This document shows positions 6,498 to 64,000 of a DNA stretch of 64,000 nucleotides, in pieces. The stretch's first letter is position 1, and every line of letters starts with the position of its first letter. The position numbers and the translations under genes are program-made. The stretch lies in sequence record OR896837.1, one strand, 5' to 3'. The notes under the pieces were generated by a model. The model searched no databases, had not been told where the DNA came from, and saw only the letters and a list, made by a program, of their open reading frames with translations. This DNA comes from Escherichia phage vB_Eco_mar004NP2.

Positions 6498-6528
6498 AGA
6501 TTCATAAATTTGAGAGAGGAGTTTAAAT

Positions 6529-7233: not shown

Positions 7234-7489
7234 GCTAACAGATTTGCTTAAAGATGGAGATGTAAAATATCTCCAGCGGGATAGCTGGGGTAATTGGGAC
7301 GCTCGTACTTATTACTCTACTATTATAAAAGTAGATGTTGATAATAATGATATTGTCGAGTTTACCTGGTGGCTCAATGAAGGTGGGTATACCAAGTTCG
7401 ATATAAAAGACGCAACATGGAAAACCTCCTCCCTAACCCTAGAAGAAGCTCTGGCGGATGATTGGGAGATCGTTGAGCTAGATGTGTAG
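7226..7489 (+). CDS. hypothetical protein
   Basis: GTG 7226 with AAGGA 7 nt upstream, overlapping the previous stop (track start 7202 is TTG). Confidence 0.4.
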   Translation: MSKLTDLLKDGDVKYLQRDSWGNWDARTYYSTIIKVDVDNNDIVEFTWWLNEGGYTKFDIKDATWKTSSLTLEEALADDWEIVELDV

Positions 7490-7510
7490 CAATTACAGAA
7501 AAAATTTCAG

Positions 7511-7539
7511 TTGCTTAATCCTATAATTCTTGATATAAT
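7511..7539 (+). promoter_or_regulatory. sigma70-like early promoter
   Basis: TTGCTT-17 nt-TATAAT. Confidence 0.55.
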
Positions 7540-7596
7540 ATTCTCATAGTTTGAAAGAACTATTCTGTTTAATTATTAATTAAGGAAATATAAAAT

Positions 7597-8007
7597 ATGA
7601 CTACTCCAACTCAGTGGACTGATGAACTGTTCGAAAAAATGTCTTCCGAATACGTTGCTCGTATGGAGCAATTCCCAGAGGATGAACGTCCGGGTGTTAG
7701 CATGGAAATTGTTAGCGAAATTGCCCAGGAAAATGGTGTAACTCCGAACGGTTTTCGTATGAAGCTAACTAAAGCAGGTGTGTATATCAAGAAAGCTGCT
7801 GGCTCTGCTTCTAAATCTAGCGCATCTACTGGAGAAAAAGCTTCTGGTGGTTCTCGTACTTCCAAAGCCCAAGCTCATGCCGATCTTCGTTCAGCATTCT
7901 CTGATGCTGGCTTAGCACCAGATTTTCTGGATGATGCAATTATCGACAAACTGACCGGTAAAGCGGCTGCTCATCTGGCAGAAGCAATCCGAGCTATCAC
8001 TAAGTAA
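7597..8007 (+). CDS. hypothetical abundant early protein with one HeH-like module
   Basis: Codons biased to GCT/CGT/CTG/GAA; contains TPNGFRMKLTKAGVYIKKA, related to the repeats of ORF 10733..11500. Confidence 0.5.
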   Translation: MTTPTQWTDELFEKMSSEYVARMEQFPEDERPGVSMEIVSEIAQENGVTPNGFRMKLTKAGVYIKKAAGSASKSSASTGEKASGGSRTSKAQAHADLRSAFSDAGLAPDFLDDAIIDKLTGKAAAHLAEAIRAITK

Positions 8008-8043
8008 TTTCTAGATAAATCCACCAACAAAAGGAACACAGTT

Positions 8044-8337
8044 ATGACCAAAGCTGAAATTATCGCACAATGTGAAAAATTTGGTGAGTTTTATCTTCAT
8101 TACGAGAAACTTCGTCAGAAAGGAACCACGTACCTTCAGGGTACGATGGAATTTGATCCAGCCCAAGATAAATATCTGGCTGAGCGTATTAAACGTGAAC
8201 GTATTCGTAAAGCGAAAGATGATGAGATCCTTGTCTTCTCTCGTACTAATGATAGCTTCCGTTTTATTCCTGTCGAGAAAGTCCGTCGTGTGACTAGCCT
8301 CCAATCAGAGTTAGATCGTGCTTCTCCAGTAGGCTGA
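8044..8337 (+). CDS. hypothetical protein
   Basis: 97-aa ORF with RBS AAGGA; basic, lysine/arginine-rich. Confidence 0.45.
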   Translation: MTKAEIIAQCEKFGEFYLHYEKLRQKGTTYLQGTMEFDPAQDKYLAERIKRERIRKAKDDEILVFSRTNDSFRFIPVEKVRRVTSLQSELDRASPVG

Positions 8338-8350
8338 TAAGAAACCAATT

Positions 8351-8378
8351 AGCCCCTATATGGGGCTTTTTGTGTATT
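8351..8378 (+). terminator. rho-independent terminator
   Basis: AGCCCC-TATAT-GGGGCT followed by TTTTTGTGTATTT. Confidence 0.6.
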
Positions 8379-8390
8379 TGGGATATGTAA

Positions 8391-8699
8391 ATGAGCGAAC
8401 AGGTAAATCAAAACTATGAAGGACACGTTGATGACCAGTCCATCATACTCTGGGAGAAGGAGGGAGAACAAGTAAGATTAACAGTATCTGAATTTCGTGG
8501 GAATCTATACATGGGTATTCGTTACTGGCTTCTTGATATTAATGATGAATGGTTTCCAACGAAATCTGGCTTCTCTTTTCCTTACACCCTAGAAACAACA
8601 TCGCAGCTTTTCTATGCGTTTACACAGATTCTTAGCGAATCTGAGGTTTTACATGAAGTACAGAAACGAGCTGAAGAACTCAAAGCCAAGAATGCCTAG
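8391..8699 (+). CDS. PC4/p15-like ssDNA-binding protein (putative)
   Basis: Pattern RLTVSEFRGNLYMGIRYW...WFPTKSGFSFP resembles the PC4 coactivator fold signature (K..VS...F.G...IDIREYW...PTKKGISL). Confidence 0.4.
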   Translation: MSEQVNQNYEGHVDDQSIILWEKEGEQVRLTVSEFRGNLYMGIRYWLLDINDEWFPTKSGFSFPYTLETTSQLFYAFTQILSESEVLHEVQKRAEELKAKNA

Positions 8700-8718
8700 T
8701 TCTTGGCTTTTTCTTTAT
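8684..8718 (+). terminator. rho-independent terminator
   Basis: AGCCAAGAA-TGCCTAG-TTCTTGGCT followed by TTTTCTTTAT; the stop codon lies in the loop. Confidence 0.55.
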
Positions 8719-8726
8719 AAATGTAT

Positions 8727-8755
8727 TTGCTTTCAACTCAGTTTTGTTATATAAT
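8727..8755 (+). promoter_or_regulatory. sigma70-like early promoter
   Basis: TTGCTT-17 nt-TATAAT followed by TATAAATTAATGAGAG leader. Confidence 0.55.
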
Positions 8756-8786
8756 ATTTATATAAATTAATGAGAGATACAAATAA

Positions 8787-9758
8787 ATGACTAATGTAAA
8801 AGACTTTATTAAACGTTGCCAAGAAGCATATTACCAGGGAATGTCTTTAATCTCTGACGAAGAATATGATCGTCTGATTAAAAGATTTCCGTTAGAAGAA
8901 GAGATCGGGCCTAAGGGCGATATTCCACATCTGTATCGTATGTATTCTTTACAGAAAGTTTATTATAATCGTGGAGATAAACCTCCGTTTAACCCATTAG
9001 GTCAGGTAGAAACTGATAAGTTAGATGGTTGTGCGATTTCTCTGTTATATATTAATGGCGAATTTGTTCAAGCATTAACTCGTGGTAATGGCATTCTAGG
9101 GAATGATGTCACAAGCAACGTAAGATTGCTGAACATCCCTAAAAAGATTTCCCAAAAAGTACCTACTCAAATCACTGGTGAAGTTCTAATTACAAAAGAA
9201 GTAGAAAATAAACGTAACTTTGCCTCTGGTGCTATTAACCTCAAGGATAGAGATGATTTCGTACAACGTATCGGGGAAGGTGGTTTAATCTTCGTTGCAT
9301 ATGGTATCCAGTGTTCTGCTGAATCTGTAGGTATTACAGAAGCGTATTTAAAAGATATGCTTTGGCTGGAGAATGAGAACTTCTTAACAGTTGTTAATGT
9401 GCGTTCCTTCTTTAAATGGATTCCGACGGACGGTAAAGTTGTTCGTATCAATGACAATAACAAATTCTTCCGAGAAGGCTGGACTAATAAATTCCCTCGT
9501 GGAGCATTCGCTATTAAAGAGGATGAAGAAGGCGAAATTACAACTCTTACTAAAGTTGAATGGCAGGTAGGGGCTTCTGGTAAAGTAACTCCAGTTGGTT
9601 ATTTTGAACCGGTAATTATTGATGATGCTACAATTGTTAAAGCGACTCTTAATAACGTTGATTATATTAACTCTCTCGATCTAGAGATCGGTTGCCAGAT
9701 TCGAGTGATTCGTGCTGGTGGTGTAATCCCGTGTATAGTAGAGCGAGTATACGATTAA
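8787..9758 (+). CDS. NAD-dependent DNA ligase, N-terminal (adenylation/OB) subunit
   Basis: LigA-type adenylation motif ETDKLDGCAIS (KxDG lysine), RGNG and EGxV motifs; 323 aa; ends before the Zn-finger/HhH/BRCT part. Confidence 0.8.
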   Translation: MTNVKDFIKRCQEAYYQGMSLISDEEYDRLIKRFPLEEEIGPKGDIPHLYRMYSLQKVYYNRGDKPPFNPLGQVETDKLDGCAISLLYINGEFVQALTRGNGILGNDVTSNVRLLNIPKKISQKVPTQITGEVLITKEVENKRNFASGAINLKDRDDFVQRIGEGGLIFVAYGIQCSAESVGITEAYLKDMLWLENENFLTVVNVRSFFKWIPTDGKVVRINDNNKFFREGWTNKFPRGAFAIKEDEEGEITTLTKVEWQVGASGKVTPVGYFEPVIIDDATIVKATLNNVDYINSLDLEIGCQIRVIRAGGVIPCIVERVYD

Positions 9759-9901
9759 TACATAACCCTTTGCTACCCATCTACCATATCGGAATTATAA
9801 AGTGGTTATTGACATTTTCGCCGCTTAGGTATATACTATTATCATTCAGTTGAGGGATAGAAAGTTATGGCGAGGGTAAGCAAAGTTAGTTAAAATTGTA
9901 G

Positions 9902-9930
9902 TTGCTAAATGCTTAAATACTTGCTATAAT
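9902..9930 (+). promoter_or_regulatory. sigma70-like early promoter inside the ligase split
   Basis: TTGCTA-17 nt-TATAAT; a second candidate TTGACA-17-TATACT lies at 9813-9841. Confidence 0.5.
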
Positions 9931-9960
9931 ATTTATATAAATTGATAAGGAAGAAATTTG

Positions 9961-10740
9961 ATGAAAATCGAAATTCCAACACAATGTCCCTCTTGTGGTT
10001 CTAAGCTAGATCTTGTCAACGGACAATTATTCTGTCGGAATAAGTCCAACTGTCCAGCGCAATCAAGTAAGTTAATTGAGAACTTCTGTTCAAAAATGAA
10101 GTTAAAGGGCTTTGGCCCAAAAACTATTGAGAAGCTGGAGCTGACGAAGATTTCAGAACTATTTTACCTAACCGAAGAAGATTTGGTTAGAGCCGTGGGT
10201 AGCAAGGTTGCCGCTAAGTTAATTAGCGAATTAAATACTAAAGTTCGCGGAGACATTGACTTTGGTTCAGTTCTCGGTTCTTTAGGAATCCCTCTAATTG
10301 GAGAGGTTGCAGCAAAGAAATTATCCCAAAATTACACTAGCTTCCATGATGTGAAGGCTGACGGCAAGGCTGGAGAAAATTACAAAGCCTGGCTAAATTC
10401 CCCACAAGGCAAGGATGTTATCGAACTACCGTGGAAATTTTCAACTGGTATTAAGGGCACTAAAGCTGACGTCATCATTACAGATGAATTAGTTGCCCAG
10501 CCAAATGGAATCGCGGTATGTATTACCGGATCTTTGCAAGATTTTGCAAATCGAACGGATGCAACAAACTATTTAGAAGGTCTAGGGTATACGGTTAAGA
10601 AATCCGTTACTAAAGACGTCAAATACCTAATCTGTGAGGATGAATCAAAACGTTCTTCCTCATCTTATAAGAAAGCCGAAACGAATGGGATAGAAATCCT
10701 GTCGATTAAAGAACTATTGGAGAAAAATAATAATGTCTAA
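9961..10740 (+). CDS. NAD-dependent DNA ligase, C-terminal (Zn-finger/HhH/BRCT) subunit
   Basis: CPSCGSKL...FCRNKSNCPAQ four-Cys zinc finger, glycine-rich HhH-like segment (GFGPKT, GIPLIGE), BRCT-like C-terminus; ATG 9961 (track start 9958 is TTG). Confidence 0.75.
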   Translation: MKIEIPTQCPSCGSKLDLVNGQLFCRNKSNCPAQSSKLIENFCSKMKLKGFGPKTIEKLELTKISELFYLTEEDLVRAVGSKVAAKLISELNTKVRGDIDFGSVLGSLGIPLIGEVAAKKLSQNYTSFHDVKADGKAGENYKAWLNSPQGKDVIELPWKFSTGIKGTKADVIITDELVAQPNGIAVCITGSLQDFANRTDATNYLEGLGYTVKKSVTKDVKYLICEDESKRSSSSYKKAETNGIEILSIKELLEKNNNV

Positions 10741-53175: not shown

Positions 53176-53413
53176 TATTGTAATTGCTTTTATTATCGGG
53201 ATACTCGCGGGAGTTTTCGGGACGACTGCGGCAATCAATAAGCATCGTAAATATATTGCGGGAGTGACGCGGGAGATTGCGGAAAGGGAGCGGAAGTTTG
53301 ACGAGAAACGTGCGGAGTTTGAGCGGGAGTGGTCGGATGGATCTCGGGCGTCGCGGAAGAGATTCCGTGAGTTCAGACCAGAATACAGGTTTGATGACCC
53401 TTCTATGCGCTAA
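53168..53413 (+). CDS. small membrane protein (81 aa)
   Basis: N-terminal TM helix (IVIAFIIGILAGVFG), highly charged C-terminus; 3' end lies in the 76-bp tandem repeat. Confidence 0.4.
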   Translation: MFSIVIAFIIGILAGVFGTTAAINKHRKYIAGVTREIAERERKFDEKRAEFEREWSDGSRASRKRFREFRPEYRFDDPSMR

Positions 53414-53519
53414 TTTGACTTTTGCCAATTTCTTTGGATTACGTGAGTTCAGACCAGAATACAGGTTTGATGACCCTTCTATGCGCTAATTTGACTTTTG
53501 CCAATTTCTTTGGATTACG
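53368..53519. repeat. 76-bp tandem direct duplication (2 copies)
   Basis: GTGAGTTCAGACCAGAATACAGGTTTGATGACCCTTCTATGCGCTAATTTGACTTTTGCCAATTTCTTTGGATTAC occurs at 53368-53443 and again at 53444-53519. Confidence 0.9.
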
Positions 53520-53641
53520 TACGCGTGGGTGTGTCCAGTGGCCCCCCAGATGAGAATGAGTCTCATTACCGCCCGGTACTTAGCAGGCTAATAGTCACGG
53601 CATGGTATCATTACACACCGTGACTATTTCAACTTTAATTG

Positions 53642-54376
53642 TTAGGCAACTTTTAATTTCTCAATATATTGTTGAGGACTGCAACTATATTCTGCGCGTT
53701 CTTCCTCGGTCATACCTTCCCAGCATAATTTTAAACGGTCAGCTAGGAATTGATAATCATTATCATCGTCGAGAGATTCATCAATAAAGGTTTCACCTAT
53801 CAATGCCACGCCGATTGATAGAATATCATTAACGGCTTGTGCGTCCAGCGTTTTAAATCCGTATGACGCTGCCGCTGATAGCACGCCTTTATGATCATCA
53901 ATCATTGTAAAATCAGCGTTAGGATATAACTGTTTAAATAATTCAAAATAATAAGATTTATATACTGCGTCTTTGCTGTGGTATATTTCGCTAACCTTAT
54001 CAGCTTTAAAATATTTGTGTAGTGTATCGCGGGAAAATACGCGGATATTACTATTACCACGACCGCGCAACCCTTGTTTACGCAAGAAATAATAGTCCGA
54101 CTTACTCATCAGTCGAGCGGTGCAAATAATGTTTAAAGTATTTGCGTCATTCATGCACTGGCGCATATATTCAACCAATGGCAATAAAGTATCTTGCATT
54201 ATTAAATGGTGTTTACACGCTTCATTTTTATACTTATTTAAATCTAAATTGCCCTCGCTATCAAAGCAGGGTGCTATACGATGGAAAGAATTAATGATAG
54301 TGCCGTCTAAATCCCAAATCATGACGCGGGAAATATGCGGGAAGCTGCGGGAAAGATTCATGATAGCTTTATTCAT
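53642..54376 (-). CDS. dmp: HAD-family 5'-deoxyribonucleotidase (Dmp-like pre-early protein)
   Basis: HAD motif I IWDLDGTII; 244 aa; next to the A1-like gene. Confidence 0.65.
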   Translation of the reverse strand: MNKAIMNLSRSFPHISRVMIWDLDGTIINSFHRIAPCFDSEGNLDLNKYKNEACKHHLIMQDTLLPLVEYMRQCMNDANTLNIICTARLMSKSDYYFLRKQGLRGRGNSNIRVFSRDTLHKYFKADKVSEIYHSKDAVYKSYYFELFKQLYPNADFTMIDDHKGVLSAAASYGFKTLDAQAVNDILSIGVALIGETFIDESLDDDNDYQFLADRLKLCWEGMTEEERAEYSCSPQQYIEKLKVA

Positions 54377-54455
54377 TTGTTACGTTCTCCATTTAAGGGA
54401 TTAGATTAATTCAGCATTACCCGCTATTTATAAGCGGGTAATAATAAATTAACTA

Positions 54456-54848
54456 TTAAAGACCATAAGCCAACGCATCGGCGATAAAACTAACATCCTC
54501 ACCTGATACATGGGAACGAATCCCCGCACAAGTATATACTTTTGCAGAAATCAATTGATCATCAAGGCAAGCGGGGCAAGGCGCGACAACTGCAAAGGCT
54601 AGACCGGATTTTACTGCGTCGATGATAATCGTTTCTTGTTTCGCCGTGTCAACATAAACGCCTTTTGCTTTAATATGGCTAGTTAGTTTGCCTTGCATAT
54701 ATGCAAATGTTGTAACCTGCAAAGCGTCATTGAAATCTAGCAATTCATCAATAACGTGCCCCGCCTCGACGTGGTAACGCTCACCATTAGAATAAACCAG
54801 AACAATTGAGGATTGAGCGCGGTCAAATGGAATATTTTGCTTTTTCAT
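54456..54848 (-). CDS. hypothetical pre-early protein
   Basis: 130 aa; GC-richer codon usage than the late genes. Confidence 0.45.
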   Translation of the reverse strand: MKKQNIPFDRAQSSIVLVYSNGERYHVEAGHVIDELLDFNDALQVTTFAYMQGKLTSHIKAKGVYVDTAKQETIIIDAVKSGLAFAVVAPCPACLDDQLISAKVYTCAGIRSHVSGEDVSFIADALAYGL

Positions 54849-54886
54849 GTTTATAAAACTCCAATTAGTTTAATAATGGATTTAAT

Positions 54887-55144
54887 TTATTTGATAATAA
54901 TCTGCATCTGGTACGGTGTTAATTCACCGTTTACGGGTAAATTATTATCGCTTAGCCACTCATAAAAAGCACCATCATCGTCAAAGGGTACAATATCATT
55001 ATCACTATAATCGACCGTAATAATCCCATCAGTATTAGTTTTGGCGGCTAGAATAGGCCCGAAGCTGTAAACTTTATCGGATTCCATTTCATCCGGTGAA
55101 ATAAATGCTTTTTCGTCTAGCGTTTTGGGTAATGTAACTTTCAT
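54887..55144 (-). CDS. hypothetical protein
   Basis: 85-aa acidic protein. Confidence 0.4.
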   Translation of the reverse strand: MKVTLPKTLDEKAFISPDEMESDKVYSFGPILAAKTNTDGIITVDYSDNDIVPFDDDGAFYEWLSDNNLPVNGELTPYQMQIIIK

Positions 55145-55200
55145 TCTAATTTAGCTCCTGTAATAGCGGCTATATTTCAAGCCGCTAGGGGATTAATTAT

Positions 55201-56865
55201 TTACGCAAAGAATTTACCGTTTTTAAAGTCAATCAAAGTGCGCTGACCGTTTGCATAGGTAATTAAATGCGTTTGCGTCCAGCTTGACGCGCCAACGTTG
55301 TAACCCATGTCCAGACTACCAGCTACGCCAGCGGTATACACGCCGCCATAAATGCTGGCGGTGTGAGTGTGTCCGGTGTTTAATTTGCCCAATTTCTTAA
55401 ATTGTTTAGGATTGCCACGGCTGCCGTTAATGCCGTTGTGACCGTGTACGCCGCATTCAATGCCTACAATCTTGAAAGATTGGTCAGTAGTTAGAAAAAT
55501 GGCGTTAAACTCACAACCTGCAACCTTGCGCAGCGCATAATCTAGCACGTTGAAAGTATCGTCTTTTTCTGCAATAGCTCCATAAATCGCGGCATTTAGG
55601 CGGTGATATAGTTCCGCGTTTGCTGGATCGTCTTTAATGTTAGCATTACGATCATCAAGCCAACGGGATAGCGCCAAATCGTGATTAGATTCAACAATGA
55701 TTGTTTGCGAGAAATCACGTTCCATTGATTCCAGCACGCGCCCCGTATCGATAAGATCATCTAATACCTTATCACGTCCGGCGGCGTATTGTTTTGCTAG
55801 GAATACACCGGATGCGCGGTTGTGATGGTTGCGTGATGTAAAATCATGCACGTCATGGATAAACTGATATTTAGGCTTGAGAATATCAAGCAAGCTATTT
55901 TCGCCAGCCCATGACGCAACGGCACAATCATCATCTAGTTTTTCTGCGTGAATATCGCCGTATTGCAAGCCTAAAACATGCCCCGATGTCTCATAGCATC
56001 CGGCAGGAGTAGCGCACACATTCAGATCATAAAATACCCCGCTTTCGTCCATCGTTTCGAGCTGGCGTACAAAAAATTCCCCGTCCTCGTCGAACTCGAC
56101 AATTAGCGCACCGAAGTTATGCAGCGCCTCGGCCTTTTGTCCTGCTTTCTGCTGAATGTAGTTTTTGAGCGTTGCCGTTCCGGTTGAGTACATACGGCGC
56201 ACTACTTCACCTTTTAAAGCTGGCACGCTTTCAGCGGTAATTTTAGCGTGACCAATTGCCAGACCTTCCAGATTAAGCGCCGTTGCAGTTTCAGCGAATC
56301 CAGAAAGCGGATAATCTGCGGTTGGCAAAACGTTAATTTCAGCCATGAAAGCAAAACGGCGGTTATTTAAAAACACGTTTTTATTGCAGATATATTTGTC
56401 AAATGCGGAATCATATTTTATTCCTTCTGCACCCTCGCCATTTTGAAAACCGTTTTTGTTATAAATAAACTTGCTAACCAGCAAATCAGCGCCGATATAT
56501 TTAGCAAATTGCTCCAATGAGGCTAAAAAGTTTTTATGCGGGAAAGTATTATTCTGAATCGACGTAATAATAAAGCGTTTACCCTGCTTTACTTCCCATT
56601 GCTCAACCGTGCTAGAAACAATCCCCGCCGCTTCTGGACGCTCATCGTTTTTAATGGCTTTTGCTACTTTCGCCGCTTTCGGTTTAGCTGGTTTATTTGC
56701 TTCCAACCAGTCGCAGATAGCGGTCGAGTGTTTTGTTGTATCGTAGACCGCTTTTGATATATCGTCGCAGACCTCCAGTTTAGTAGCGCGCAGACGTTTA
56801 CCATAGAAATTAAAGTCAGCGGCCATTTTCAGGATAACGGTTTGTTTTTCTGTGGAAATAATCAT
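55201..56865 (-). CDS. A1: A1-like pre-early metallophosphatase/nuclease
   Basis: 554 aa with calcineurin-like motifs (GDIHAE, ESNHD, GVHGHNG, GHTHT); size close to T5 A1 (about 556 aa as I recall). Confidence 0.65.
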   Translation of the reverse strand: MIISTEKQTVILKMAADFNFYGKRLRATKLEVCDDISKAVYDTTKHSTAICDWLEANKPAKPKAAKVAKAIKNDERPEAAGIVSSTVEQWEVKQGKRFIITSIQNNTFPHKNFLASLEQFAKYIGADLLVSKFIYNKNGFQNGEGAEGIKYDSAFDKYICNKNVFLNNRRFAFMAEINVLPTADYPLSGFAETATALNLEGLAIGHAKITAESVPALKGEVVRRMYSTGTATLKNYIQQKAGQKAEALHNFGALIVEFDEDGEFFVRQLETMDESGVFYDLNVCATPAGCYETSGHVLGLQYGDIHAEKLDDDCAVASWAGENSLLDILKPKYQFIHDVHDFTSRNHHNRASGVFLAKQYAAGRDKVLDDLIDTGRVLESMERDFSQTIIVESNHDLALSRWLDDRNANIKDDPANAELYHRLNAAIYGAIAEKDDTFNVLDYALRKVAGCEFNAIFLTTDQSFKIVGIECGVHGHNGINGSRGNPKQFKKLGKLNTGHTHTASIYGGVYTAGVAGSLDMGYNVGASSWTQTHLITYANGQRTLIDFKNGKFFA

Positions 56866-56962
56866 ATTAATAAAACTCCATTAAAGGGATTAAAAAACGT
56901 TTGTTATTGGCAAATATTGCCAAATATAACGCCTTGAATAATAGGCGTTATAATTTGCAACA

Positions 56963-57160
56963 TTAATTTAAAGGCATAAGGCTAGAACTAACACCACAAG
57001 CAATGGCGGCAATAAAACAAATCAGACCTAAACGCTTTGCCAATTTAGACTTACGTTTAAAATAATATGAGTCTAAATCATTTTGAAAATAAGCGAATAA
57101 TAACGAGGCCGCCATAATAAATAAGCCTAGAATTAACGATTCAGTGGGGTAAAAGATCAT
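56963..57160 (-). CDS. small membrane protein
   Basis: 65 aa with two hydrophobic helices. Confidence 0.4.
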   Translation of the reverse strand: MIFYPTESLILGLFIMAASLLFAYFQNDLDSYYFKRKSKLAKRLGLICFIAAIACGVSSSLMPLN

Positions 57161-57216
57161 TTTAAAACTCCAGTCAAAGAGAAATTATAGTGGGGAATAT
57201 TCCCCGCTAATTAAAT

Positions 57217-57624
57217 TTATTCACCTGCGGCCTGTTTTACTTCATCGGCAACGCCTAACAGTTGCGCTACGGCGTCCAGCGTTTCAAGTTTTGCACTTTC
57301 CAGACTTGCCAGACCGTCGGCGTCTTTAATAATGCCGGAATCAATAGCATGTTTAGCGATAACGCGTACATAGTGAGCTTTGCGGATTGAGCTACCGCCG
57401 CCAACTTTGCGAGGCTTATCGCTTTTCTGATACGCTTTTGCGCTGGTCAATTTTGATCGAACAGACACGGGAGAAGACGCGCCCACTGCTTTTGCAATCT
57501 CTTTTAAACCGTCGCTATTTGCGAAATCTAAACCGTTTTCATTAATTAACTGCTGGTACATAGAAACAGCTTTTTGAGTGTTTTCTTCATTCCAAGCAAA
57601 TTTTGCGGTTTTAACGTTAGTCAT
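57217..57624 (-). CDS. hypothetical pre-early protein (candidate A2-like by size and position, unverified)
   Basis: 135 aa, immediately upstream of the A1-like gene. Confidence 0.4.
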   Translation of the reverse strand: MTNVKTAKFAWNEENTQKAVSMYQQLINENGLDFANSDGLKEIAKAVGASSPVSVRSKLTSAKAYQKSDKPRKVGGGSSIRKAHYVRVIAKHAIDSGIIKDADGLASLESAKLETLDAVAQLLGVADEVKQAAGE

Positions 57625-57720
57625 GGTAAAAACTCCTATTAGTTTAATTTAAGGGATAAGATTAACATAATGTTAATCGTTATATCCCCCGAACTACTGG
57701 GGGATATAAAAGTAACACTA

Positions 57721-57972
57721 TTACGCTACAGCTTCCCATTTTTCGTTACGCTGTACAACCTTTACAACGTCGCCGGATTTAACGCGAACGCTAAAAACGG
57801 TTTTGCCGTTGTTACTACGTTCATTTTCAGCGTATACCGCGTCGATTGTATCAAACGGCATAAGCGCCGCACCTTTAATACGTTCGGCTTTTCCGGTTAG
57901 TTCATCCGTTTTAGTAACGAAAGGAATAAAAACGGATTGACCAATTTTAGGCGCGGTAATAACGTTTTGCAT
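57721..57972 (-). CDS. hypothetical protein
   Basis: 83-aa ORF with an RBS. Confidence 0.4.
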   Translation of the reverse strand: MQNVITAPKIGQSVFIPFVTKTDELTGKAERIKGAALMPFDTIDAVYAENERSNNGKTVFSVRVKSGDVVKVVQRNEKWEAVA

Positions 57973-58202
57973 AGTATAAACTCCAAGTTATTTAGGGGAT
58001 TGTTCCGCATTACCTGCTAGAAAGTAGCAGGTAATAAGCAACAATCCGCTCACCGCTATAATCAATTTAAGGAACTCCACGCAGGCTGCTATATCCCAGT
58101 TAGGGGGCAGGATGATTTATGGGGAATCACCTAACCGTCAAATTGTATCAAGTTATCGCTCTCATCGAACTGGGTACATCTTAAAGCCTATCGGCTAGGG
58201 TG

Positions 58203-58406
58203 TCAAACTGTTTTTTGCAGTTTTTTATGATTTTCTTTCAGGTCGATCATAATATTACGCCAGATCATTTCTAAACCCTGCTGGCGGCCTTTCTTGTACT
58301 GAGCAAATCGGTATTTTACGGATTGCTGGGCTATTGTCAACAATTTTTTAGTAGTACCATCTAATTTTTTAGCTGGTTTACCAGTGATCAATAAAGTTTG
58401 TTTCAT
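58203..58406 (-). CDS. hypothetical small basic protein
   Basis: 67 aa, Lys-rich. Confidence 0.35.
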   Translation of the reverse strand: MKQTLLITGKPAKKLDGTTKKLLTIAQQSVKYRFAQYKKGRQQGLEMIWRNIMIDLKENHKKLQKTV

Positions 58407-58863
58407 ATCTGCGATTCCTTATAATATAAGTTTACCGCCGATAGACTTTAAGATGTACCCAATTTTTAAAGAGCGCGGCGGTAAACTTCCCGCCGTGTAG
58501 TTCGTCATTGCCGCCCTACGAGATAAATAATAGCAAATAGTAAAAATGGCGCAACCTTATTTTTGTAAAGAAACGTAAAGACAAAATGCCACCGGACACC
58601 GTGCGGCGACCTGGGCGCGGCGCACTAAAATTAAAGGAAACGGGCGCGCGAATACCATAAAACCCAGCAGGTTGGCAAGTAATTTTTTCATTTATATTTG
58701 CCTTGCCCTACTTGACAAAAACTAAAAAGCTCGTGGTAGCGATAAACGAGGGTAGGCAATGCAATGGCATGGCTAAAAACTTCATCGCGTTATAGGGCGT
58801 TTTAGGCGCATTCTAGCCTTGTTGATAACTTATCCCCAAAAGCAAAAATGAAATTTTCCTAGT

Positions 58864-58895
58864 TATCCACTTGACTTTTATTTTCCAGTGGATAA
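58864..58895. promoter_or_regulatory. inverted pair of DnaA-box-like sites
   Basis: TTATCCACT (58864-58872) and AGTGGATAA (58887-58895) form a palindrome around TTGACTTTTATTTTCC. Confidence 0.4.
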
Positions 58896-59156
58896 CTACT
58901 TATTTTATGAAATAAATTAATTGACTTTTATTTGTTAGTATGCATCGGAAAGATAGCAGACTAATAGTTGCTAGGATGATAATCATGCTGGTGGATTGTA
59001 ATAGCCGGAACTGTTAGCAGACTATTAATCACGGAAAATCTCATTAGCCAACTAACTATTTCATGATATATAATATACTTATAAATTAATGAGAAATAAT
59101 AATTATAAGAAATCGTAACCGATAGAAATAATAACTATAAGAAACTATCGTCCTAA

Positions 59157-59286
59157 GTGAGAACCACTATCGTTTAAGTTATCCACAAGTTTATTAACAG
59201 CACAAAATGATTTGACACGATAGGCGACGATATAAGGACTTATCCACAGACTTATCCACATGTTATCCTACTGTATAAATATACAG
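59157..59286. repeat. left inverted repeat with three DnaA boxes
   Basis: TTATCCACA at 59179, 59240 and 59252; ends in palindrome CTGTATAAATATACAG; about 80% reverse-complement match to 62758-62884. Confidence 0.7.
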
Positions 59287-59552
59287 GGTAAAAAGGTAGT
59301 GTTAACAACTGCAATCAATTTTAGGCGGCCTAAAACGCTTTCTAACGAGCTAAATGCGGTGGGGTAATATTAAAGTGAAGCCTTCACCCGTCGCCCTGGT
59401 GGCTTCACCGTGTTTTGCTCTTTACTGTACCGCTGCGCGGTTAGCATAAAACTAGGCGCTAGGCAAGGAAAATAAAAAGGTAAAATAATATTTGCCTATG
59501 CTAGAAAATTGCCTTTATCATTCACTCACCGATTAACGAGGGAGGCCAACAA

Positions 59553-60314
59553 ATGAGGCTATATAAACCAGGTAACGCAACCGTCTTAAAAGGTGCGCTG
59601 CGTAACCTGCTGGACGGTAGCAGAACAACCAGCATTAAACATTTTATTAACAAGGCTGAAACTATTCACCAAAACTTTTTTGGTGATTTCGATGCCTATG
59701 ATATGAATAGTTTTCTACCGTTATATAAACAAGGGGCAACGCTTGTTTTATATAATCAAGATTATCAATTGCTCACTAGTCGAGGGCCGGATACTGATTT
59801 CATAATCGTAAAAGGTAGCACAGTAAAAGCCTATGATACTGGGGCAGGCTTAGAAGTTTTTTCAATAGAAAATTATGAAGCCAACCCCAATGATCTTTAT
59901 GATATTGAAAATTTTCTTGATTCATTTTGGCGTTATTTATCAGTTGGCTGGAATCGGTCGGATTGTGACGGGTATCGTTTCGCGGCTGTAATGGCCTTTG
60001 ATGATAACGGTAATTTTTTGTTACCGTCGGAAGTGTACCCTTATGTATATGAGGGGGATATTGAAAGCGCGGGCTTTTCTTTCTGGAAGGAGGAAGATCA
60101 GCCTATTGACAACACGGAAAAACATGCTGTAAATTCTAACACTCAAAGCGTTAACACTCAAACTACTGAAAACAAAGGAAATAATACCATGACCAAGATC
60201 GCTAATATCGTTGCCGCTAATAAATCCGCTGTTGTAAATGCTGCAAAACTGGAAGCTGGCAAAATTGCATTGACTCAAATCACGAAAGTAGCGGCTAAAA
60301 ACCGCCGTTTATGA
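59553..60314 (+). CDS. hypothetical pre-early protein
   Basis: 253 aa; RBS GAGGGAGG. Confidence 0.5.
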   Translation: MRLYKPGNATVLKGALRNLLDGSRTTSIKHFINKAETIHQNFFGDFDAYDMNSFLPLYKQGATLVLYNQDYQLLTSRGPDTDFIIVKGSTVKAYDTGAGLEVFSIENYEANPNDLYDIENFLDSFWRYLSVGWNRSDCDGYRFAAVMAFDDNGNFLLPSEVYPYVYEGDIESAGFSFWKEEDQPIDNTEKHAVNSNTQSVNTQTTENKGNNTMTKIANIVAANKSAVVNAAKLEAGKIALTQITKVAAKNRRL

Positions 60315-60544
60315 TTAAAGGTTATATTGATACGCCGATTGGTCGGGTAGTTATTGCTAACCTGCTGAGCGTAGCGGTTGACCAGTACGCCCCGAATAAC
60401 CAGAAAGCGAAAGCGGTAGCAGGCGCAGCTATGGAAGCGGCAATGCTAGAAATGGTGCAAAGTTTTAACATCGCTGAAATGATTGATGAAATGGTGAAAG
60501 GTATCGATATTTCTACTTTTACCACTAGCACCGAAAGCGAGTAA
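60311..60544 (+). CDS. hypothetical protein
   Basis: 77 aa; ATGA coupling. Confidence 0.45.
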   Translation: MIKGYIDTPIGRVVIANLLSVAVDQYAPNNQKAKAVAGAAMEAAMLEMVQSFNIAEMIDEMVKGIDISTFTTSTESE

Positions 60545-60609
60545 TAATATTTAGTGGGGATTGTTTCCCCGCTTTACTATTCCCTTATTAATTAATAGGA
60601 GGCTAATAA

Positions 60610-61104
60610 ATGGCTGAGGAAAAATATGGGTTTTCGCTAGGGGAAGTGAGCAAGGCTAAACATGATATGATCATTTTGGTCGATTGTCATACTGGCTATT
60701 GCGGTGAAGGGAATACTGAGGAATATTTTGTTCCTGCTGGTACGGATCTCGACGCTTTCGCTCATGAAATGGCTGTTGATAATGCTTCTCGTTTTGGTAG
60801 CGATGGCTATGAAGATGAGGAAACGGGCGAATGGTATGAGAATGATAATGTATATGCAAGCCTTTATCATTATCAATTAAGTAAATCCGGCACATATGTA
60901 AACGGCGGCGATCCTATTAATTCCGTCATGAAATTAATTATTAAATATGGTGGCGCTGAAATAATCGGAAATAAAGCGGTAATATACGCAAACCGACTAA
61001 AACAGCTTGTTTATATCCCTGATAGTACCCGATGGGATGAATACGCTGTTTTGCATGACGAATTGAAACGATGTTTCAATATTGAAACATTACAAGTAGT
61101 TTAA
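60610..61104 (+). CDS. hypothetical protein
   Basis: 164 aa; RBS AGGAGG. Confidence 0.5.
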   Translation: MAEEKYGFSLGEVSKAKHDMIILVDCHTGYCGEGNTEEYFVPAGTDLDAFAHEMAVDNASRFGSDGYEDEETGEWYENDNVYASLYHYQLSKSGTYVNGGDPINSVMKLIIKYGGAEIIGNKAVIYANRLKQLVYIPDSTRWDEYAVLHDELKRCFNIETLQVV

Positions 61105-61210
61105 TGTAAAGTTTTGTAAAGGTCGCCATAATTGGTGGCCTTTTTTGTTATAATGCCTTTACACCGTTTAAGGACGGTTGAAAATTTTCCCAAAAATTTG
61201 GAGGCTTAAA

Positions 61211-61441
61211 ATGGTTGCTTATTCTTCTGCTAGTCATCTGTTTACCGCGCAAGGCTGGGTATCTAATCATGCTGTCATCTATGAAATGGTGCAGGAGTTC
61301 GGTATTGTTAAAACCTATAATACCATTCAGGAACTATATAACGCCGATAAAATCGATCAGCAAACGGCTGGCTTTTTGCTGGATACCCTGAAGGCGGAAC
61401 ATTGCACCAAAAAACAAGCTGCAAAAATTGTTTTAATGTAA
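61211..61441 (+). CDS. hypothetical protein
   Basis: 76 aa from ATG 61211 with GGAGG RBS (track start 61178 is TTG). Confidence 0.4.
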   Translation: MVAYSSASHLFTAQGWVSNHAVIYEMVQEFGIVKTYNTIQELYNADKIDQQTAGFLLDTLKAEHCTKKQAAKIVLM

Positions 61442-61491
61442 TTAATAACGGGGGATATAATATCCCCCGATAACTAGGAGGATATCACAAA

Positions 61492-61641
61492 TGGTTATTT
61501 TTCGAGCTATTCTAGCAGGTATCTTGGGCGCTATTTTATCACTTTTTGCAATAGCTTTCGGCGTTCACGCGGTTATTATTGGTGCGGGTATCGCTGTATT
61601 TTCTTATCTGCTGGGCTGCATGACTAGTAAAGGAGAATAAA
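61492..61641 (+). CDS. small membrane protein (49 aa)
   Basis: Hand-translated MVIFRAILAGILGAILSLFAIAFGVHAVIIGAGIAVFSYLLGCMTSKGE; RBS AGGAGG. Confidence 0.35.
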
Positions 61642-61642
61642 A

Positions 61643-61855
61643 ATGATTCGTAACGTTTCCCTTGCACGTTCAAAAGGCTTTAAGCTGGTGGACGTTAACA
61701 CGTTCGAGCGGGAAGATTGTAAAATTGAATATGTAGCGCGAAATAAAAACGTCTTCCGTGTTACCGAGAAAAAATTCGATAAACGGGGCAACGTGATAGC
61801 TGAAACAGTTAAACATTTTGCCACCTTTTACGCTGCGTTTCGGGGAGTGCTATAA
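61643..61855 (+). CDS. hypothetical protein
   Basis: 70 aa; RBS AAAGGAGA. Confidence 0.4.
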   Translation: MIRNVSLARSKGFKLVDVNTFEREDCKIEYVARNKNVFRVTEKKFDKRGNVIAETVKHFATFYAAFRGVL

Positions 61856-61856
61856 A

Positions 61857-62201
61857 ATGGTAATTTATGAAGGCAATCGTTTTGTTGCTAATTGCCGTCC
61901 GGCATTACTAGCAAACTACTTAAATCAGCTTTCCCCAGCTTATAAGGGCGTTATTAATATTTATGAAGGCAAGGCGCATTATAAAATCAATGCGGTCGTT
62001 GCCCGTGAACTAGCGTTTCAATTTTTGACCTTTGCATCTTGCGACGTTCAGGTCATGGGTGAGGCGTTAATTGCAGAAAATGAAGATGATTTTATTAATA
62101 TTTTTCGCAAGATATGCACCGAGCGCCTGATAATGAAAGGCGCGTATATTCAATCCACTGCGGATAGTATTGAAACAGCGTTTCGAAAGGTGGCGCAATG
62201 A
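61857..62201 (+). CDS. hypothetical protein
   Basis: ATG 61857 directly after the previous stop (track start 61818 is further upstream). Confidence 0.4.
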   Translation: MVIYEGNRFVANCRPALLANYLNQLSPAYKGVINIYEGKAHYKINAVVARELAFQFLTFASCDVQVMGEALIAENEDDFINIFRKICTERLIMKGAYIQSTADSIETAFRKVAQ

Positions 62202-62301
62202 GATTATATATTTTCGCGGGTAATGTTGAGGCTGCAAATGATTCCGCTGGTGGCGATAACGTTCGCCACTATTGGCAAAAATATATTTACTAGGGGTTAT
62301 T

Positions 62302-62496
62302 ATGAACAATAAAATTGTTGTAACCAAAATCAGTACAATGGTTGATGTTTTTTACGTGCCCGATACGCCGGAGAATCGGCAAGCGGTCGAGCGTGGCGAA
62401 TATGATAGCGTTATTTATGATGCCGATGGTTATTATCAGCATTTGGTGGATTCCTACGGGGAGGAGGAAAAGATCACGCATCGACTACCAGACTAA
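62302..62496 (+). CDS. hypothetical protein
   Basis: 64 aa from ATG 62302 (MNNKIVV...). Confidence 0.3.
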   Translation: MNNKIVVTKISTMVDVFYVPDTPENRQAVERGEYDSVIYDADGYYQHLVDSYGEEEKITHRLPD

Positions 62497-62757
62497 TAAT
62501 AACGGGGCGCAACTACCAGGGAGTGCCCCCAATTCTCAAATGAGAGTGATTCTCATTTAACCGCGCCCGCGATGGTTAGCCTGCTAATGATTAAGGTGTT
62601 ACATGTCGCCTTGTGTGATCGTTAGCAAGCTAACTAATTTTTAAGCCTCCTCCAATTTTGCCCTTGTTTTAGTATCCCCATCAAAATTAAACGCGTTAGA
62701 ATGCGATTCAGGACGTTTTAGGCCTATATTAGAATTATTCACTACATAGGAATATTG

Positions 62758-62884
62758 TATATTTATACAGTAGGATAAGCTGTGGATAAGTCTGTTAATA
62801 ACGCCTCAAAATGGCTAGGATTCTGTCAAATCAAATCGTGCTGTTAATAAGTCTGTGGATAACTTAAATAACAGTGTTTCTCAC
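62758..62884. repeat. right inverted repeat with DnaA boxes
   Basis: TGTGGATAA at 62781 and 62854; reverse complement aligns with 59157-59286. Confidence 0.7.
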
Positions 62885-63060
62885 TTCCATTCTTAAATGA
62901 GAATCATTATCATTCGCATTCCACTGTCTAACCGATAATCATTTCCTTTCTTAAATGAGAATCATTTCACTTTTTGAATAGTTCTCATTTCACTTCTTAA
63001 ATGAGAATCATTATCATTCGCATTCCACTTCTTAAATGATAATGATTCTCATTCAAAGTC
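62885..63060. repeat. array of TCTTAAATGAGAATCATT-type repeats
   Basis: At least four direct or inverted copies of AAATGAGAATCATT / AATGATTCTCATT; related palindromes at 53547-53568 and 62537-62560. Confidence 0.7.
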
Positions 63061-63078
63061 GCAGGGCAATTGCCCTGC
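63061..63078. repeat. perfect 18-bp palindrome
   Basis: GCAGGGCAATTGCCCTGC. Confidence 0.9.
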
Positions 63079-63084
63079 GCTTTT

Positions 63085-63685
63085 GTGCAAATCCGACATA
63101 TGCCACCATGGATTACGCGCGGGCGTGTATGTGCGAATCCGACAATTTTTGGTAGTGTGCAAATCCGACCCCAAAAATTTTTATAGTGTGCAAATCCGAC
63201 AATGAATTTTCCCAAAAACTCCAGCAATCACGAACTGCGTTCGAATCCTGTGGGATATGTGCAAATCCGACACGGTTTTTCTAGGATTAAGATGTGCGAA
63301 TCCGACAAGATTTTTGTGACTTCGATTGGAGGGTGTGTGATTGTATAGGTTTGAGGAGAAGATGAGAGAGCGAGAGAAAATAAGGGGAGAAACTGGAGGA
63401 GCAGCATGGGTGGCGTGCAACGCCTGATTTGCTGCGTTTTTGGGAAGAGTTGAGAAGATTTGGGTTAATTTGAGATTAGTGGAGATAAAGTAAAATTTTA
63501 TTTGCTAAAGGTGGCAAAATAGCTTGACAAGTGAAAATTTTTTGTGACCCTAAAAACTCAGGCAATCATGGGCCTTCGGCCCGAAATAATGCTGCCATTT
63601 TCAGGAGATTATGTATTCATGAAAACTTAGGCGTTTGTGCAAATCCGACCATAAATTTCTAGAAACACAATGTGCAAATCCGACA
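63085..63685. repeat. dispersed array of GTGC(A/G)AATCCGAC(A/C) 14-mers
   Basis: Eight copies, at 63085, 63131, 63157, 63188, 63259, 63294, 63637 and 63672, all in the same orientation, irregular spacing, no ORF. Confidence 0.85.
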
Positions 63686-64000
63686 GTAATTTCTGGAAAT
63701 GTGTTTTCAAAAAATGTCTCCTAGAAATAACCGCCCTCCCTATAACCGCCCTGTATTAAACCGGCCTAGGATATGTAACGTTGGAGAGAAACTGCCCTAG
63801 AGTGTAAGAGTTTTCCTAGAAACTTAGGAGTCTAGAAGAAAGTGTTGTGCCATCCTAGCAGATGAGCGGCAACAGGTGTATCATCTTGAATGTAAATTAT
63901 ATGGTCAAAAAGTTTTACTTTTATTTTAAATATAAGATCCCCCAGGGTTCTCATATAGAGCTTTGCCCCCGCCAGAAGGTCTCGTGATGTTTCTAGTAAT

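Follow-up and report, generated by a model that had tools for sequence, protein, structure and literature searches.

The non-coding tract at positions 62497-63720 of the window, by which we mean the whole 64,000-nucleotide stretch of Escherichia phage vB_Eco_mar004NP2 (OR896837.1) that was analysed, is very probably the orthologue of Repeat Region 3 of phage T5, which is annotated in T5 as a cis-acting injection stop signal. The phage is T5-like (Demerecviridae) and 99% identical to Salmonella phage PMBT29. T5 positions 105-10717 are collinear with window positions 53623-64000, window 62661-64000 shows 85% identity to T5 9317-10717, and T5 Repeat Region 3 (9194-10409) is the counterpart of 62497-63720. 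The tract starts directly after the last rightward pre-early ORF (62272-62496) and the homologues of T5.018 lie past the end of the window; as in T5, it lies at the right end of the terminal repeat, flanked by the last of the rightward pre-early genes and by the first of the leftward early genes. The terminal repeat, of about 10 kb, corresponds to window 53532-63550, and the tract covers its final ~1.05 kb and ~170 bp outside it. An earlier note, made from the letters of the sequence, had proposed the tract as the injection-stop region of a T5-type phage; this reading is borne out by the T5-like genome, by the 85% alignment to T5 9317-10717 and by the annotation in the T5 records, and the comparable repeats that it expected in T5 are the same ones.

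The T5-type injection-stop repeat tract is already a known feature, and nearly all of its repeats are listed in T5 GenBank records. An 'injection stop signal (iss)' is annotated at 9140-10149 in AY543070 and likewise in AY692264, and AY587007 itemises the T5 repeats as palindromes C-J, IRD', IRC', DRB, DRC1-4, DRD1-9 and DRA2-3. Davison (bioRxiv 10.1101/866236) named the tract Repeat Region 3 and considered it the probable iss, the homologous tract of Salmonella phage S114 is labelled 'similar to DNA injection stop signal', and the probable iss has been described as conserved across 25 T5-like phages. In T5 itself the assignment is positional, resting on the shear point at ~7.9% and on conserved repeats just left of it; according to a 2023 paper the exact iss position is settled in a minority of phages at most, and no experiment tying the stop to one specific repeat is cited in the T5 literature searched. 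The injection-stop reading of the present tract is therefore supported as far as position and homology to T5 reach, and any specific mechanism for the stop should be regarded as rather unlikely at best.

The repeats are real, lie far above chance and are concentrated in the tract instead of being scattered over the window. The eight same-orientation copies of GTGC(A/G)AATCCGAC that had been pointed out are all exact and all on the + strand, and the spacers given as about 12 to 330 bp proved to be gaps of 13-330 bp. The palindromic units described at 62885-63060 correspond to AAATGAGAATCATT, with 3 exact copies plus degenerate or inverted ones, and the perfect 18-bp palindrome at 63061-63078 is GCAGGGCAATTGCCCTGC. 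Both exact copies of the proposed second repeat family, AAAAACTC(C/A)(A/G)GCAATCA, are present as well, but as a two-copy family they are not significant on their own. The statement that the tract contains no ORF holds with a correction. Mechanical ORFs reach 79 aa, but each is disrupted in at least one of the 21 diverged relatives compared, most of them in more than half, and Pfam gave no match to any; those that survive lie in the conserved repeat block, where they overlap one another in different reading frames. A small-protein reading was therefore rejected; the numerous small CDS of PMBT29, like the CDS of 177 aa in saus47N, most likely reflect over-annotation. A Rfam scan of the tract (E-value up to 1) and ARAGORN gave sub-threshold chance matches only and no tRNA, and a passing likeness of tRNA T-arms to the DRD repeats and to GTTCGAATCC was given no weight.

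The tract is present in 543 phage records. The order of DnaA boxes, DRC dyads, (GCGC) and DRD repeats is kept in relatives from Klebsiella, Pantoea, Serratia and Pectobacterium, the flanks of which are no longer alignable. Conservation, expressed as mean identity to the window over the 21 diverged relatives, peaks at the DnaA-box element (0.94), the palindrome with its GCGC (0.97), the DRD 13-mers (0.95, against 0.79 for their spacers) and the boundary block at 63551-63583 (0.98-1.00), which is the most conserved part of the whole tract. Three features of the interval go beyond the earlier note, namely two pairs of DnaA boxes at 62781-62862, a 73-nt duplication (DRE1/DRE2) and the terminal-repeat boundary.

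At its left end the tract begins with a variable spacer (62497-62660), which does not align to T5, has the lowest conservation of the tract and carries an extra DRC-type dyad, AAATGAGAGTGATTCTCATTT, at 62538-62558. It is followed on the - strand by the IRD'-spacer-IRC' inverted-repeat element of ~130 bp (62756-62885), which is homologous to features in AY587007 and contains four DnaA-type boxes arranged as two pairs with 3 bp between the partners, namely TTATCCACA at 62781 and 62854 and TTATTAACA at 62793 and 62842, all on the - strand. An inverted partner sits 3.6 kb upstream on the + strand as the IRC-spacer-IRD element (59155-59286; 'Repeat Region 2' of T5 in the naming of Davison), recognised by an inverted BLAST match to T5 9542-9411, and has four DnaA-type boxes at 59179, 59191, 59240 and 59252 on the same strand. 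Perfect TTATCCACA boxes number five, all in these two ~130-bp elements and none elsewhere in the 64 kb. Like oriC-type DnaA-box clusters, the elements show consensus 9-mers in close pairs, in an arrangement conserved throughout the family; unlike oriC, the phage tract lacks a neighbouring unwinding element and an initiator function, the origins reported for T5 lie elsewhere, and the role proposed in the literature for the DnaA boxes is membrane tethering, not initiation.

The DnaA boxes are followed by DRE1 (62878-62950) and DRE2 (62982-63054), two + strand direct repeats of 73 nt with 84% identity, which lie in an AT-rich region (27-33% GC) and carry the DRC dyads. The dyad AAATGAGAATCATT is exact at 62895, 62953 and 62999, and degenerate or inverted copies lie at 62977(-), 63034(+), 63041(-) and 62538/62545. 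Within 2 mismatches it is matched 12 times against 1.8 expected, and 8 of the 12 matches are inside the tract. A 19-bp stem is predicted between 63000-63018 and 63035-63053, adjoining the GC hairpin of the palindrome that follows.

This palindrome, GCAGGGCAATTGCCCTGC, corresponds to palindrome J of T5 and, together with a following GC, occupies 63061-63080. The junction ...CCCTGCGC/TTTT is aligned to the T5 site 9748/9749, where the major 7.9% single-strand interruption is annotated at palindrome J, and a nick on the - strand is accordingly predicted at 63080/63081. The nick is annotated in T5, whereas both the nick and the termini of the present phage are placed by homology. On the + strand, the palindrome element also matches an intrinsic terminator, and the palindrome with its GCGC is probably the terminator of the rightward pre-early operon. 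The junction between CCTGCGCTT and the first DRD is retained in the Klebsiella, Pantoea and Serratia relatives.

Directly to the right begins the array of DRD repeats (GTGCRAATCCGAC), which is split into two clusters on the + strand. The proximal cluster (63085-63306) comprises six co-oriented copies of (A/T)TGTGC(A/G)AATCCGAC(A), at 63085, 63131, 63157, 63188, 63259 and 63294, and the distal one (63637-63684) two copies at 63637 and 63672, 87 and 122 bp past the terminal-repeat boundary. Their spacing is irregular (26-343 bp). Elsewhere in the 64 kb, GTGC(A/G)AATCCGAC is matched within 1 mismatch only once, at 22248, against a chance expectation of 0.11; this site looks like chance and was discarded as a related element, since an SbcC-like exonuclease gene encloses it and it bears no relation to a nick site. 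Co-oriented DRD arrays were found in every Demerecviridae lineage examined, and DRD pairs in T5-sized viral contigs only. In 596 Gb of bacterial genomes just 8 paired matches occurred, none of them on an enterobacterial chromosome, and a host origin of the array was dropped, given this near absence. Being lineage-specific and absent from host genomes, the DRDs appear to be the target of a phage-encoded binding protein. Since A1, A2 and dmp have no Pfam domain and A2 has no relative in the PDB, protein families offered no argument for a binding partner. To our knowledge, the DRD does not convincingly match matS, the dif/XerC arms, or the CRP, IHF, Ter or RcsAB boxes. Neither the DRD nor TTGACA at 63525 was retained as a promoter, promoter-like matches being no commoner than in shuffled sequences and no usable -10 being present.

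The right boundary of the terminal repeat is placed between the two DRD clusters, at 63550/63551, by homology to T5, BF23, phiR201 and four other two-repeat contigs; the present assembly holds a single collapsed repeat, and its boundaries are therefore derived from relatives. The repeat-end sequence ...TTGACA-N19-21-(C)TGTGGMTC/TAAAAAC, in which the slash marks the boundary, is common to two T5 records, BF23 (the ends of which had been determined with PhageTerm), phiR201 and three further Tequintavirus-sized contigs, and the TTGACA and /(T)AAAAAC parts of it are retained in Sugarland-like and My1-like genomes. By homology this is the point where the mature ends form, as would be required of a terminase recognition site, but some public records place the right end elsewhere, at window ~63344 in saus47N and chee130_1 and at ~63125 in Kenya-K20. 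The last 250 bp of the repeat (63300-63550, + strand) are G-rich and C-poor, with a GC skew of +0.55, and hold the conserved block TTGACAAGTGAAAA and the equivalents of T5 DRA2/DRA3 (about 63436-63476). In six lineages this stretch alone is skewed, with G>C values between +0.44 and +0.68 that fall to ~0 on either side. The first bases outside the repeat (63551-63583, + strand) consist of TAAAAACTCAGGCAATCA (63552-63568), the second copy of the second repeat family, and the hairpin GGGCCTTCGGCCC (63570-63582); the first copy, AAAAACTCCAGCAATCA, is at 63214-63230 on the + strand. In T5-like, Sugarland-like and My1-like genomes alike, 4-6 DRDs are found 148-497 bp left of the repeat end and 2-5 DRDs 87-431 bp right of it.

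Compared over its whole length, the tract follows T5 Repeat Region 3 element by element, with IRD'-spacer-IRC' and its paired DnaA boxes, the DRE duplication with its DRC dyads, palindrome J with the GCGC nick site, the co-oriented DRD array, DRA, the repeat boundary and two further DRDs in the same order. The two phages differ in that T5 has no counterpart of the first ~165 bp past the last ORF, where the extra dyad is located, in that T5 has 9 DRD copies and this phage 8, the ninth T5 copy sitting in a segment deleted here, and in the boxes of the IRD'-IRC' element, which are two consensus TTATCCACA and two variant boxes in this phage and one consensus and three variant boxes in T5. Three properties are without counterpart in the T5 literature searched: the near-consensus match of the DRC dyads to Fur sites, the DRDs flanking the repeat boundary (in three lineages) and the G-skewed last 250 bp (in six phages).

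Taken together, the tract is composite, a fixed series of protein-binding and structural modules rather than a single repeat array. These are the paired DnaA boxes in their inverted repeat with the partner 3.6 kb upstream, the DRE/DRC dyads, the GC palindrome with GCGC as the 7.9% nick site and probable terminator of the rightward pre-early operon, and the DRD 13-mers in two co-oriented clusters bracketing the G-skewed 250 bp and the terminal-repeat boundary. When DNA transfer pauses, once ~8% of the genome is in, the first two modules, just left of the measured shear point, might hold the DNA through bound host proteins (DnaA, and possibly Fur), through strong hairpins or cruciforms near the nick, or through both; DnaA binding as a component of the pause is a proposal of Davison. 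The DRD clusters and the boundary block might serve a separate task, in which a conserved phage protein recognises the end of the genome, be it for cutting by terminase or for the restart of transfer by A1/A2. That the two halves differ in function in this way is our inference.

It is a possibility of some weight, to be held tentatively, that the right half (63085-63690, with the DRD clusters, the G-skewed tract and the boundary block) is mainly a genome-end or packaging signal and not a stop, the DRD 13-mers on either side of the boundary being putative terminase recognition sites in concatemers. The repeat-end sequence shared by T5, BF23, phiR201 and the related contigs, the DRDs bracketing that end in T5-like, Sugarland-like and My1-like genomes, the top conservation of the block directly outside it, the skew limited to the last 250 bp in six lineages and the phage-encoded binder suggested by the lineage-specific DRDs all agree with this. 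As a general rule, packaged DNA obeys 'last in, first out'; T5 DNA exits the capsid left end first and should thus be packaged right end first, in which case terminase must recognise and cut the right repeat boundary. The lambda cos site (cosQ-cosN-cosB, with its R sites) and the arrays of short repeats around the terminal repeat of T7 serve packaging recognition and resemble the DRDs in that short sites for a phage protein are repeated to the left and right of the mature-end cut, are present once in each genome unit and are conserved along with the packaging machinery; the DRDs differ in being non-palindromic 13-15-mers spread over 600 bp and absent from the left repeat boundary, and terminase binding is putative for them. 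No DRD is indeed found near 53532, the repeat end is placed elsewhere in some records, the packaging direction rests on the general rule, and the literature searched held no terminase-DNA data for T5-like phages. A packaging role is compatible with the modular arrangement proposed above and does not exclude it. A stop of a mechanical kind, in which palindrome hairpins or cruciforms beside the nick could not pass the tail or portal channel until A1/A2 act and no sequence-specific host protein is involved, seems unlikely. The 19-bp stem and the GC hairpin are predicted to fold with a dG of -28.5 kcal/mol (z = -10.6 against shuffles), the nick homologue is directly beside them, and the measured shear point of T5, at ~9618 in AY587007 coordinates, falls within the hairpin block (Davison). 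However, the prediction applies to a free single strand, whereas packaged DNA is duplex and the structure would have to be extruded from it. Mutants without nicks, in older T5 genetics, still transfer their DNA in two steps. Moreover, ejection into FhuA proteoliposomes runs to completion in vitro (Davison). On a further view, the DnaA boxes and 13-mers would recruit an initiator or a ParB-like protein, and the tract would serve as an origin of replication or as an iteron-type locus for copy control or partition; replication control, iterons and partition sites had been mentioned in the earlier note as well. This view could appeal to the confinement of the five perfect TTATCCACA boxes to two elements, to the repeated co-oriented DRD 13-mers and to the low GC content of the DRE region, but is extremely improbable: the DRD spacing of 26-343 bp is unlike that of phased iterons, and the flanking ORFs are small pre-early proteins without Rep, ParA or ParB domains (the only Pfam match being DUF7566 in the ORF at 59553-60314), so that regularly spaced iterons beside an initiator or centromere-binding gene are not found. 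In addition, the tract lies between two convergent operons at the genome end, the electron microscopy studies cited by Davison place the T5 origins near mid-genome, and replication genes are not yet expressed at the pre-early stage.

The DRC dyads could also be sites for the host iron regulator Fur, which, alone or with DnaA, would coat the first-step-transfer DNA and aid the pause or pre-early control. Scored by mismatches to the consensus and Markov simulations, not by a weight matrix, the 7-1-7 Fur motif TGATAATNATTATCA is matched at 13 of 14 specified positions at 62898, 63002 and 63037, the 19-bp consensus GATAATGATAATCATTATC at 15 of 19 positions at two sites, and a perfect TGATAATCATTATCA is located 220 bp from the left genome end. 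Four sites match the 7-1-7 motif within 1 mismatch, all in the 10-kb repeat (0.05 expected per 64 kb), and 11 strand-sites match the classical 19-mer within 4 mismatches, again exclusively in the repeat, the remaining 53.5 kb having none (0.06 expected). The 15 consecutive nucleotides AATGAGAATCATTAT are also found just upstream of iucA in 641 plasmids, iucA is among the footprinted E. coli Fur regions, and real Fur boxes are described as 50-80% identical to the consensus, the DRC dyads being 79% identical. At least one site within 2 mismatches is present in the 350 bp left of the first DRD in 10 of 13 diverse relatives. Near-consensus and clustered, as real Fur sites are, the dyads nevertheless differ from Fur operators such as the iucA promoter: they do not overlap a promoter (weak promoter-like matches numbered 6, against 5.0 expected from shuffles, in a tract between convergent operons), they belong to phage DNA, where they sit at an operon's 3' end, and their closeness to the consensus varies by relative, which leaves them candidate sites by sequence. 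In most relatives the dyads are 2-3 mismatches off the Fur consensus, the family consensus being nearer to TGMGAATSATTMTCA, and Serratia Kamaji and Klebsiella Roth39 have no Fur-like site within 2 mismatches; the motif may therefore belong to another dimeric protein, for which A2, reported as a DNA-binding dimer, is a candidate. The left-end box is inside the dmp coding sequence and may owe its conservation to codon constraint. It is also not obvious how further entry would be stopped by a protein on DNA that has already reached the cell interior. FhuA, the receptor of T5, is itself under Fur repression; the conditions that favour infection are therefore those in which Fur binds DNA least well, and an essential role of Fur is hard to reconcile with this. 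On balance, we consider a contribution of Fur to have a low probability.

The finding itself is the rediscovery of a textbook T5 feature, the repeats of which are already in GenBank. It would be a long shot that Fur is a part of the host factor for the T5 injection pause, in the two-step model of the 1960s, that the DRC dyads are genuine Fur operators beside the paired DnaA boxes, that the first-step-transfer DNA is seized by these two abundant host proteins as it emerges, and that the DRD clusters are also the recognition sites for the right-end cut. If the emerging DNA were indeed seized by Fur and DnaA, the pause or the timing of pre-early expression would be tied to the iron state of the cell. 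For the T5-like phages, the question of two-step transfer is narrowed to separable conserved modules, namely the DnaA boxes, the Fur-like dyads, the nick with its hairpins and the DRD clusters at the repeat end.

The tract at 62497-63720 contains all the repeats and the palindrome listed in the earlier note. The 13-mer GTGC(A/G)AATCCGAC occurs eight times at 63085-63684, every copy on the + strand, and enumeration of the motif over the 64 kb gave a single further match with at most one mismatch, within an exonuclease gene (0.11 expected). AAATGAGAATCATT is present in three exact and several degenerate or inverted copies (12 matches at ≤2 mismatches vs 1.8 expected), the perfect 18-bp palindrome lies at 63061-63078, and a second family, AAAAACTCMRGCAATCA, has two exact copies. 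The region had been described as free of ORFs; mechanical ORFs of up to 79 aa do occur, but comparison with 21 diverged relatives showed none to be intact in every one of them, and no Pfam match was obtained for any. Rfam and tRNA scans of the tract gave no matches. Several public records annotate small CDSs, even one of 177 aa, across the repeat tract.

The tract is 99% identical to its counterpart in Salmonella phage PMBT29 and was found in 448-543 T5-like phage records. Positions 53623-64000 are collinear with T5 (AY543070) 105-10717 and thus represent the terminal repeat, of which the first-step-transfer DNA consists, the left genome end being placed at 53532 by alignment. A base-by-base alignment sets T5 9317-10717 opposite 62661-64000. 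AY543070 and AY692264 annotate an injection stop signal (iss) at 9140-10149 and a major single-strand interruption at 9748/9749, and AY587007 annotates palindromes C-J, IRD', IRC', DRB, DRC1-4, DRD1-9, DRA2-3 and a "major single-stranded nick 1, 7.9%". In the T5 nomenclature, AAATGAGAATCATT corresponds to DRC, GTGCRAATCCGAC to DRD and the 18-bp palindrome to palindrome J. Davison named this 1.2-kb region Repeat Region 3 (9194-10409), called it the 'probable iss' and found it, with its eight paired DnaA boxes, conserved in 25 T5-like phages (bioRxiv 10.1101/866236). Homology and position therefore bear out the injection-stop reading of the earlier note, and we consider the identity of the tract as a T5-type iss region to be settled with high confidence. 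As the T5 records and Davison already itemise it, the tract itself is known; how it stops injection is what we infer.

From left to right, a variable spacer without T5 counterpart (62497-62660) is followed by the IRD'-spacer-IRC' element (62756-62885), in which DnaA-type boxes form two pairs on the - strand. Four further boxes lie in its inverted partner at 59155-59286, and the window has five perfect TTATCCACA sites, each of them in one of these two elements. The 73-nt DRE1/DRE2 duplication bearing the DRC dyads (62878-63054) precedes the palindrome plus GC (63061-63080). On the + strand the latter is the only terminator-like site of the region, and its predicted fold with the 19-bp stem that directly precedes it has an energy of -28.5 kcal/mol (z = -10.6). 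The T5 nick maps by alignment to 63080|63081, so that the 5' end of the - strand would read GCGC. Further right are six proximal DRDs (63085-63306), a G-rich, C-poor tract (63300-63550), an invariant block (63551-63583) that holds copy 2 of the second family as well as a GGGCCTTCGGCCC hairpin, and two distal DRDs (63637-63684). A third short motif, (T)TCTAGAAA(C), is found past the last DRD, in the unique region, in both orientations (63656, 63719, 63813, 63829 and 63988); the sequence from 63656 to 64000 is highly conserved with T5 and near-identical over 63824-64000. To the left of the tract, at a distance of ~250 bp, a small pre-early ORF contains a Chi sequence, GCTGGTGG, on the + strand (62249-62256).

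Among 21 relatives differing pairwise by >3%, identity to the window peaks at 0.94 in the DnaA-box element and 0.97 in the palindrome plus GCGC, reaches 0.98-1.00 in the block 63551-63590, and is 0.95 for the DRD 13-mers vs 0.79 for their own spacers. In Klebsiella, Pantoea, Serratia and Pectobacterium relatives the flanks are unalignable but the order of modules is kept, from DnaA boxes through DRC-like dyads to co-oriented arrays of 5-9 DRDs; the GCGC junction is retained in all but the Pectobacterium phage. No locus among those compared has DRDs on both strands. Paired DRDs were found only in T5-sized contigs among the viral contigs searched, and 596 Gb of bacterial genomes contained essentially none, which suggests that the DRD is recognised by a conserved protein of the phage itself and was not borrowed from a host. 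In two metagenomic T5-like contigs (L026, 832-892; L061, 5147-5207) five consecutive DRD 13-mers are strictly tandem with a 15-bp period, in contrast to the irregular spacing in T5, so the putative DRD-binding protein evidently tolerates back-to-back sites. Many Tequintavirus genomes have a solitary extra DRD in the same orientation ~1.8 kb downstream of the main array (12154 in T5, a position past the window end).

The earlier note had also offered a replication-control or iteron locus. This reading was rejected, since the T5 origins are reported to be mid-genome (Davison, bioRxiv 10.1101/866236), no initiator or partition gene was found near the tract and its DRDs are irregularly spaced.

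The DRC dyads are candidate Fur binding sites. Of the 14 positions specified in the 7-1-7 Fur motif TGATAATNATTATCA, three dyads share 13; two dyads share 15 of 19 with the classical 19-mer, natural Fur boxes being 50-80% identical to the consensus. Such sites are enriched over chance in the terminal repeat, which holds all four 7-1-7 sites with ≤1 mismatch (expected 0.05) and all 11 strand-sites of the 19-mer with ≤4 mismatches (expected 0.06; 0 in the other 53.5 kb). The core AATGAGAATCATTAT is identical over 15 nt to a sequence just upstream of iucA, a footprinted Fur region. A perfect 15-bp palindrome corresponding to the 7-1-7 consensus, TGATAATCATTATCA, is located at 53751-53765, ~200-230 bp from the left genome end (220 bp in the window; equivalents at 233-247 in T5 and 202-216 in the related genome L048). 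It is conserved in T5, BF23, phiR201 and one Sugarland-like phage, and, unlike the codons around it, shows no variation in five of six diverged phages; it sits, however, in the coding sequence of dmp. Moreover, the dyads of most relatives are 2-3 mismatches off the Fur consensus, two relatives have none at ≤2, the consensus of the dyad family itself is nearer TGMGAATSATTMTCA, and no overlap of the dyads with a promoter was found. Binding by a dimeric phage protein is an equally good explanation, and the phage protein A2, reported as a DNA-binding dimer, would fit it. Fur is not mentioned in Davison's T5 analysis, and no link between T5, Fur and injection was found in the literature searched. 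Further Fur-like 19-mers lie at 53552 and at 57666, the second of them preceding the A2 start by ~40 bp.

The repeat end ...TTGACA-N19-21-(C)TGTGGMTC|TAAAAACTCAGGCAATCA is common to two T5 records, BF23 (whose ends were determined with PhageTerm), phiR201 and three more two-repeat contigs of Tequintavirus size; Sugarland-like and My1-like genomes retain its TTGACA and |(T)AAAAAC parts. By homology, the boundary in the window is 63550|63551, inside the tract and directly ahead of copy 2 of the second family. This boundary is bracketed in T5-like, Sugarland-like and My1-like genomes by 4-6 DRDs on the left (at 148-497 bp) and 2-5 on the right (at 87-431 bp). Six lineages (the window, T5 (L001), L006, L009, L036 and L048) show a GC skew between +0.44 and +0.68 over the final 250 bp of the repeat (63300-63550), the + strand being G-rich and C-poor; the skew is ~0 on either flank and stops at the boundary. 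No description of a G-skewed repeat end was found in the T5 literature searched. As a general rule the genome end packaged last exits first. Since T5 DNA leaves by its left end, its packaging should start from the right, which would make the DRD-bracketed boundary a plausible terminase recognition region; the literature search gave no data on this.

Annotated right ends of the terminal repeat lie up to ~425 bp apart among closely related phages (MF431733, MF431736 and OQ291032 vs AY543070, AY587007 and OR083247), with saus47N and chee130_1 at window ~63344 and Kenya-K20 at ~63125; in AY692264 the repeat feature ends at the nick. At the other end, a 76-bp unit in two tandem copies (53366-53520) takes in the 3' end of the final ORF in the right unique region together with the adjoining spacer, reaching ~12 bp short of the inferred left genome end. 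It is single-copy in T5 and all closest relatives listed (99.5-99.8% identical), a 401-bp query spanning 323-325 bp in 12 of 12 listed records, and the second copy reflects a very recent duplication or else an artefact of assembly at the collapsed-terminal-repeat junction.

We favour a reading in which the two halves of the tract would divide labour. In the left half, the DnaA boxes, DRC dyads, hairpins and nick are located at the T5 shear point (~9618 in AY587007 coordinates) or just to its left and would form the arrest point, acting through bound host proteins and/or DNA structure, and the palindrome would in addition act as a terminator for rightward pre-early transcripts. In the right half, the DRD clusters, G-skewed tract and boundary block would function in recognising the end or in restarting transfer. 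The T5 tail tube, 40 rings of ~40 Å or 160 nm, has a computed capacity of ~470 bp of B-DNA, so that arrest with ~63080 on the cell side would put the boundary block (~63550) near the head-tail connector, a numerical coincidence to which we give no weight. Beyond the known tract, the possible link of DRC to Fur, the DRD-bracketed boundary and the G skew remain as modest but testable leads.
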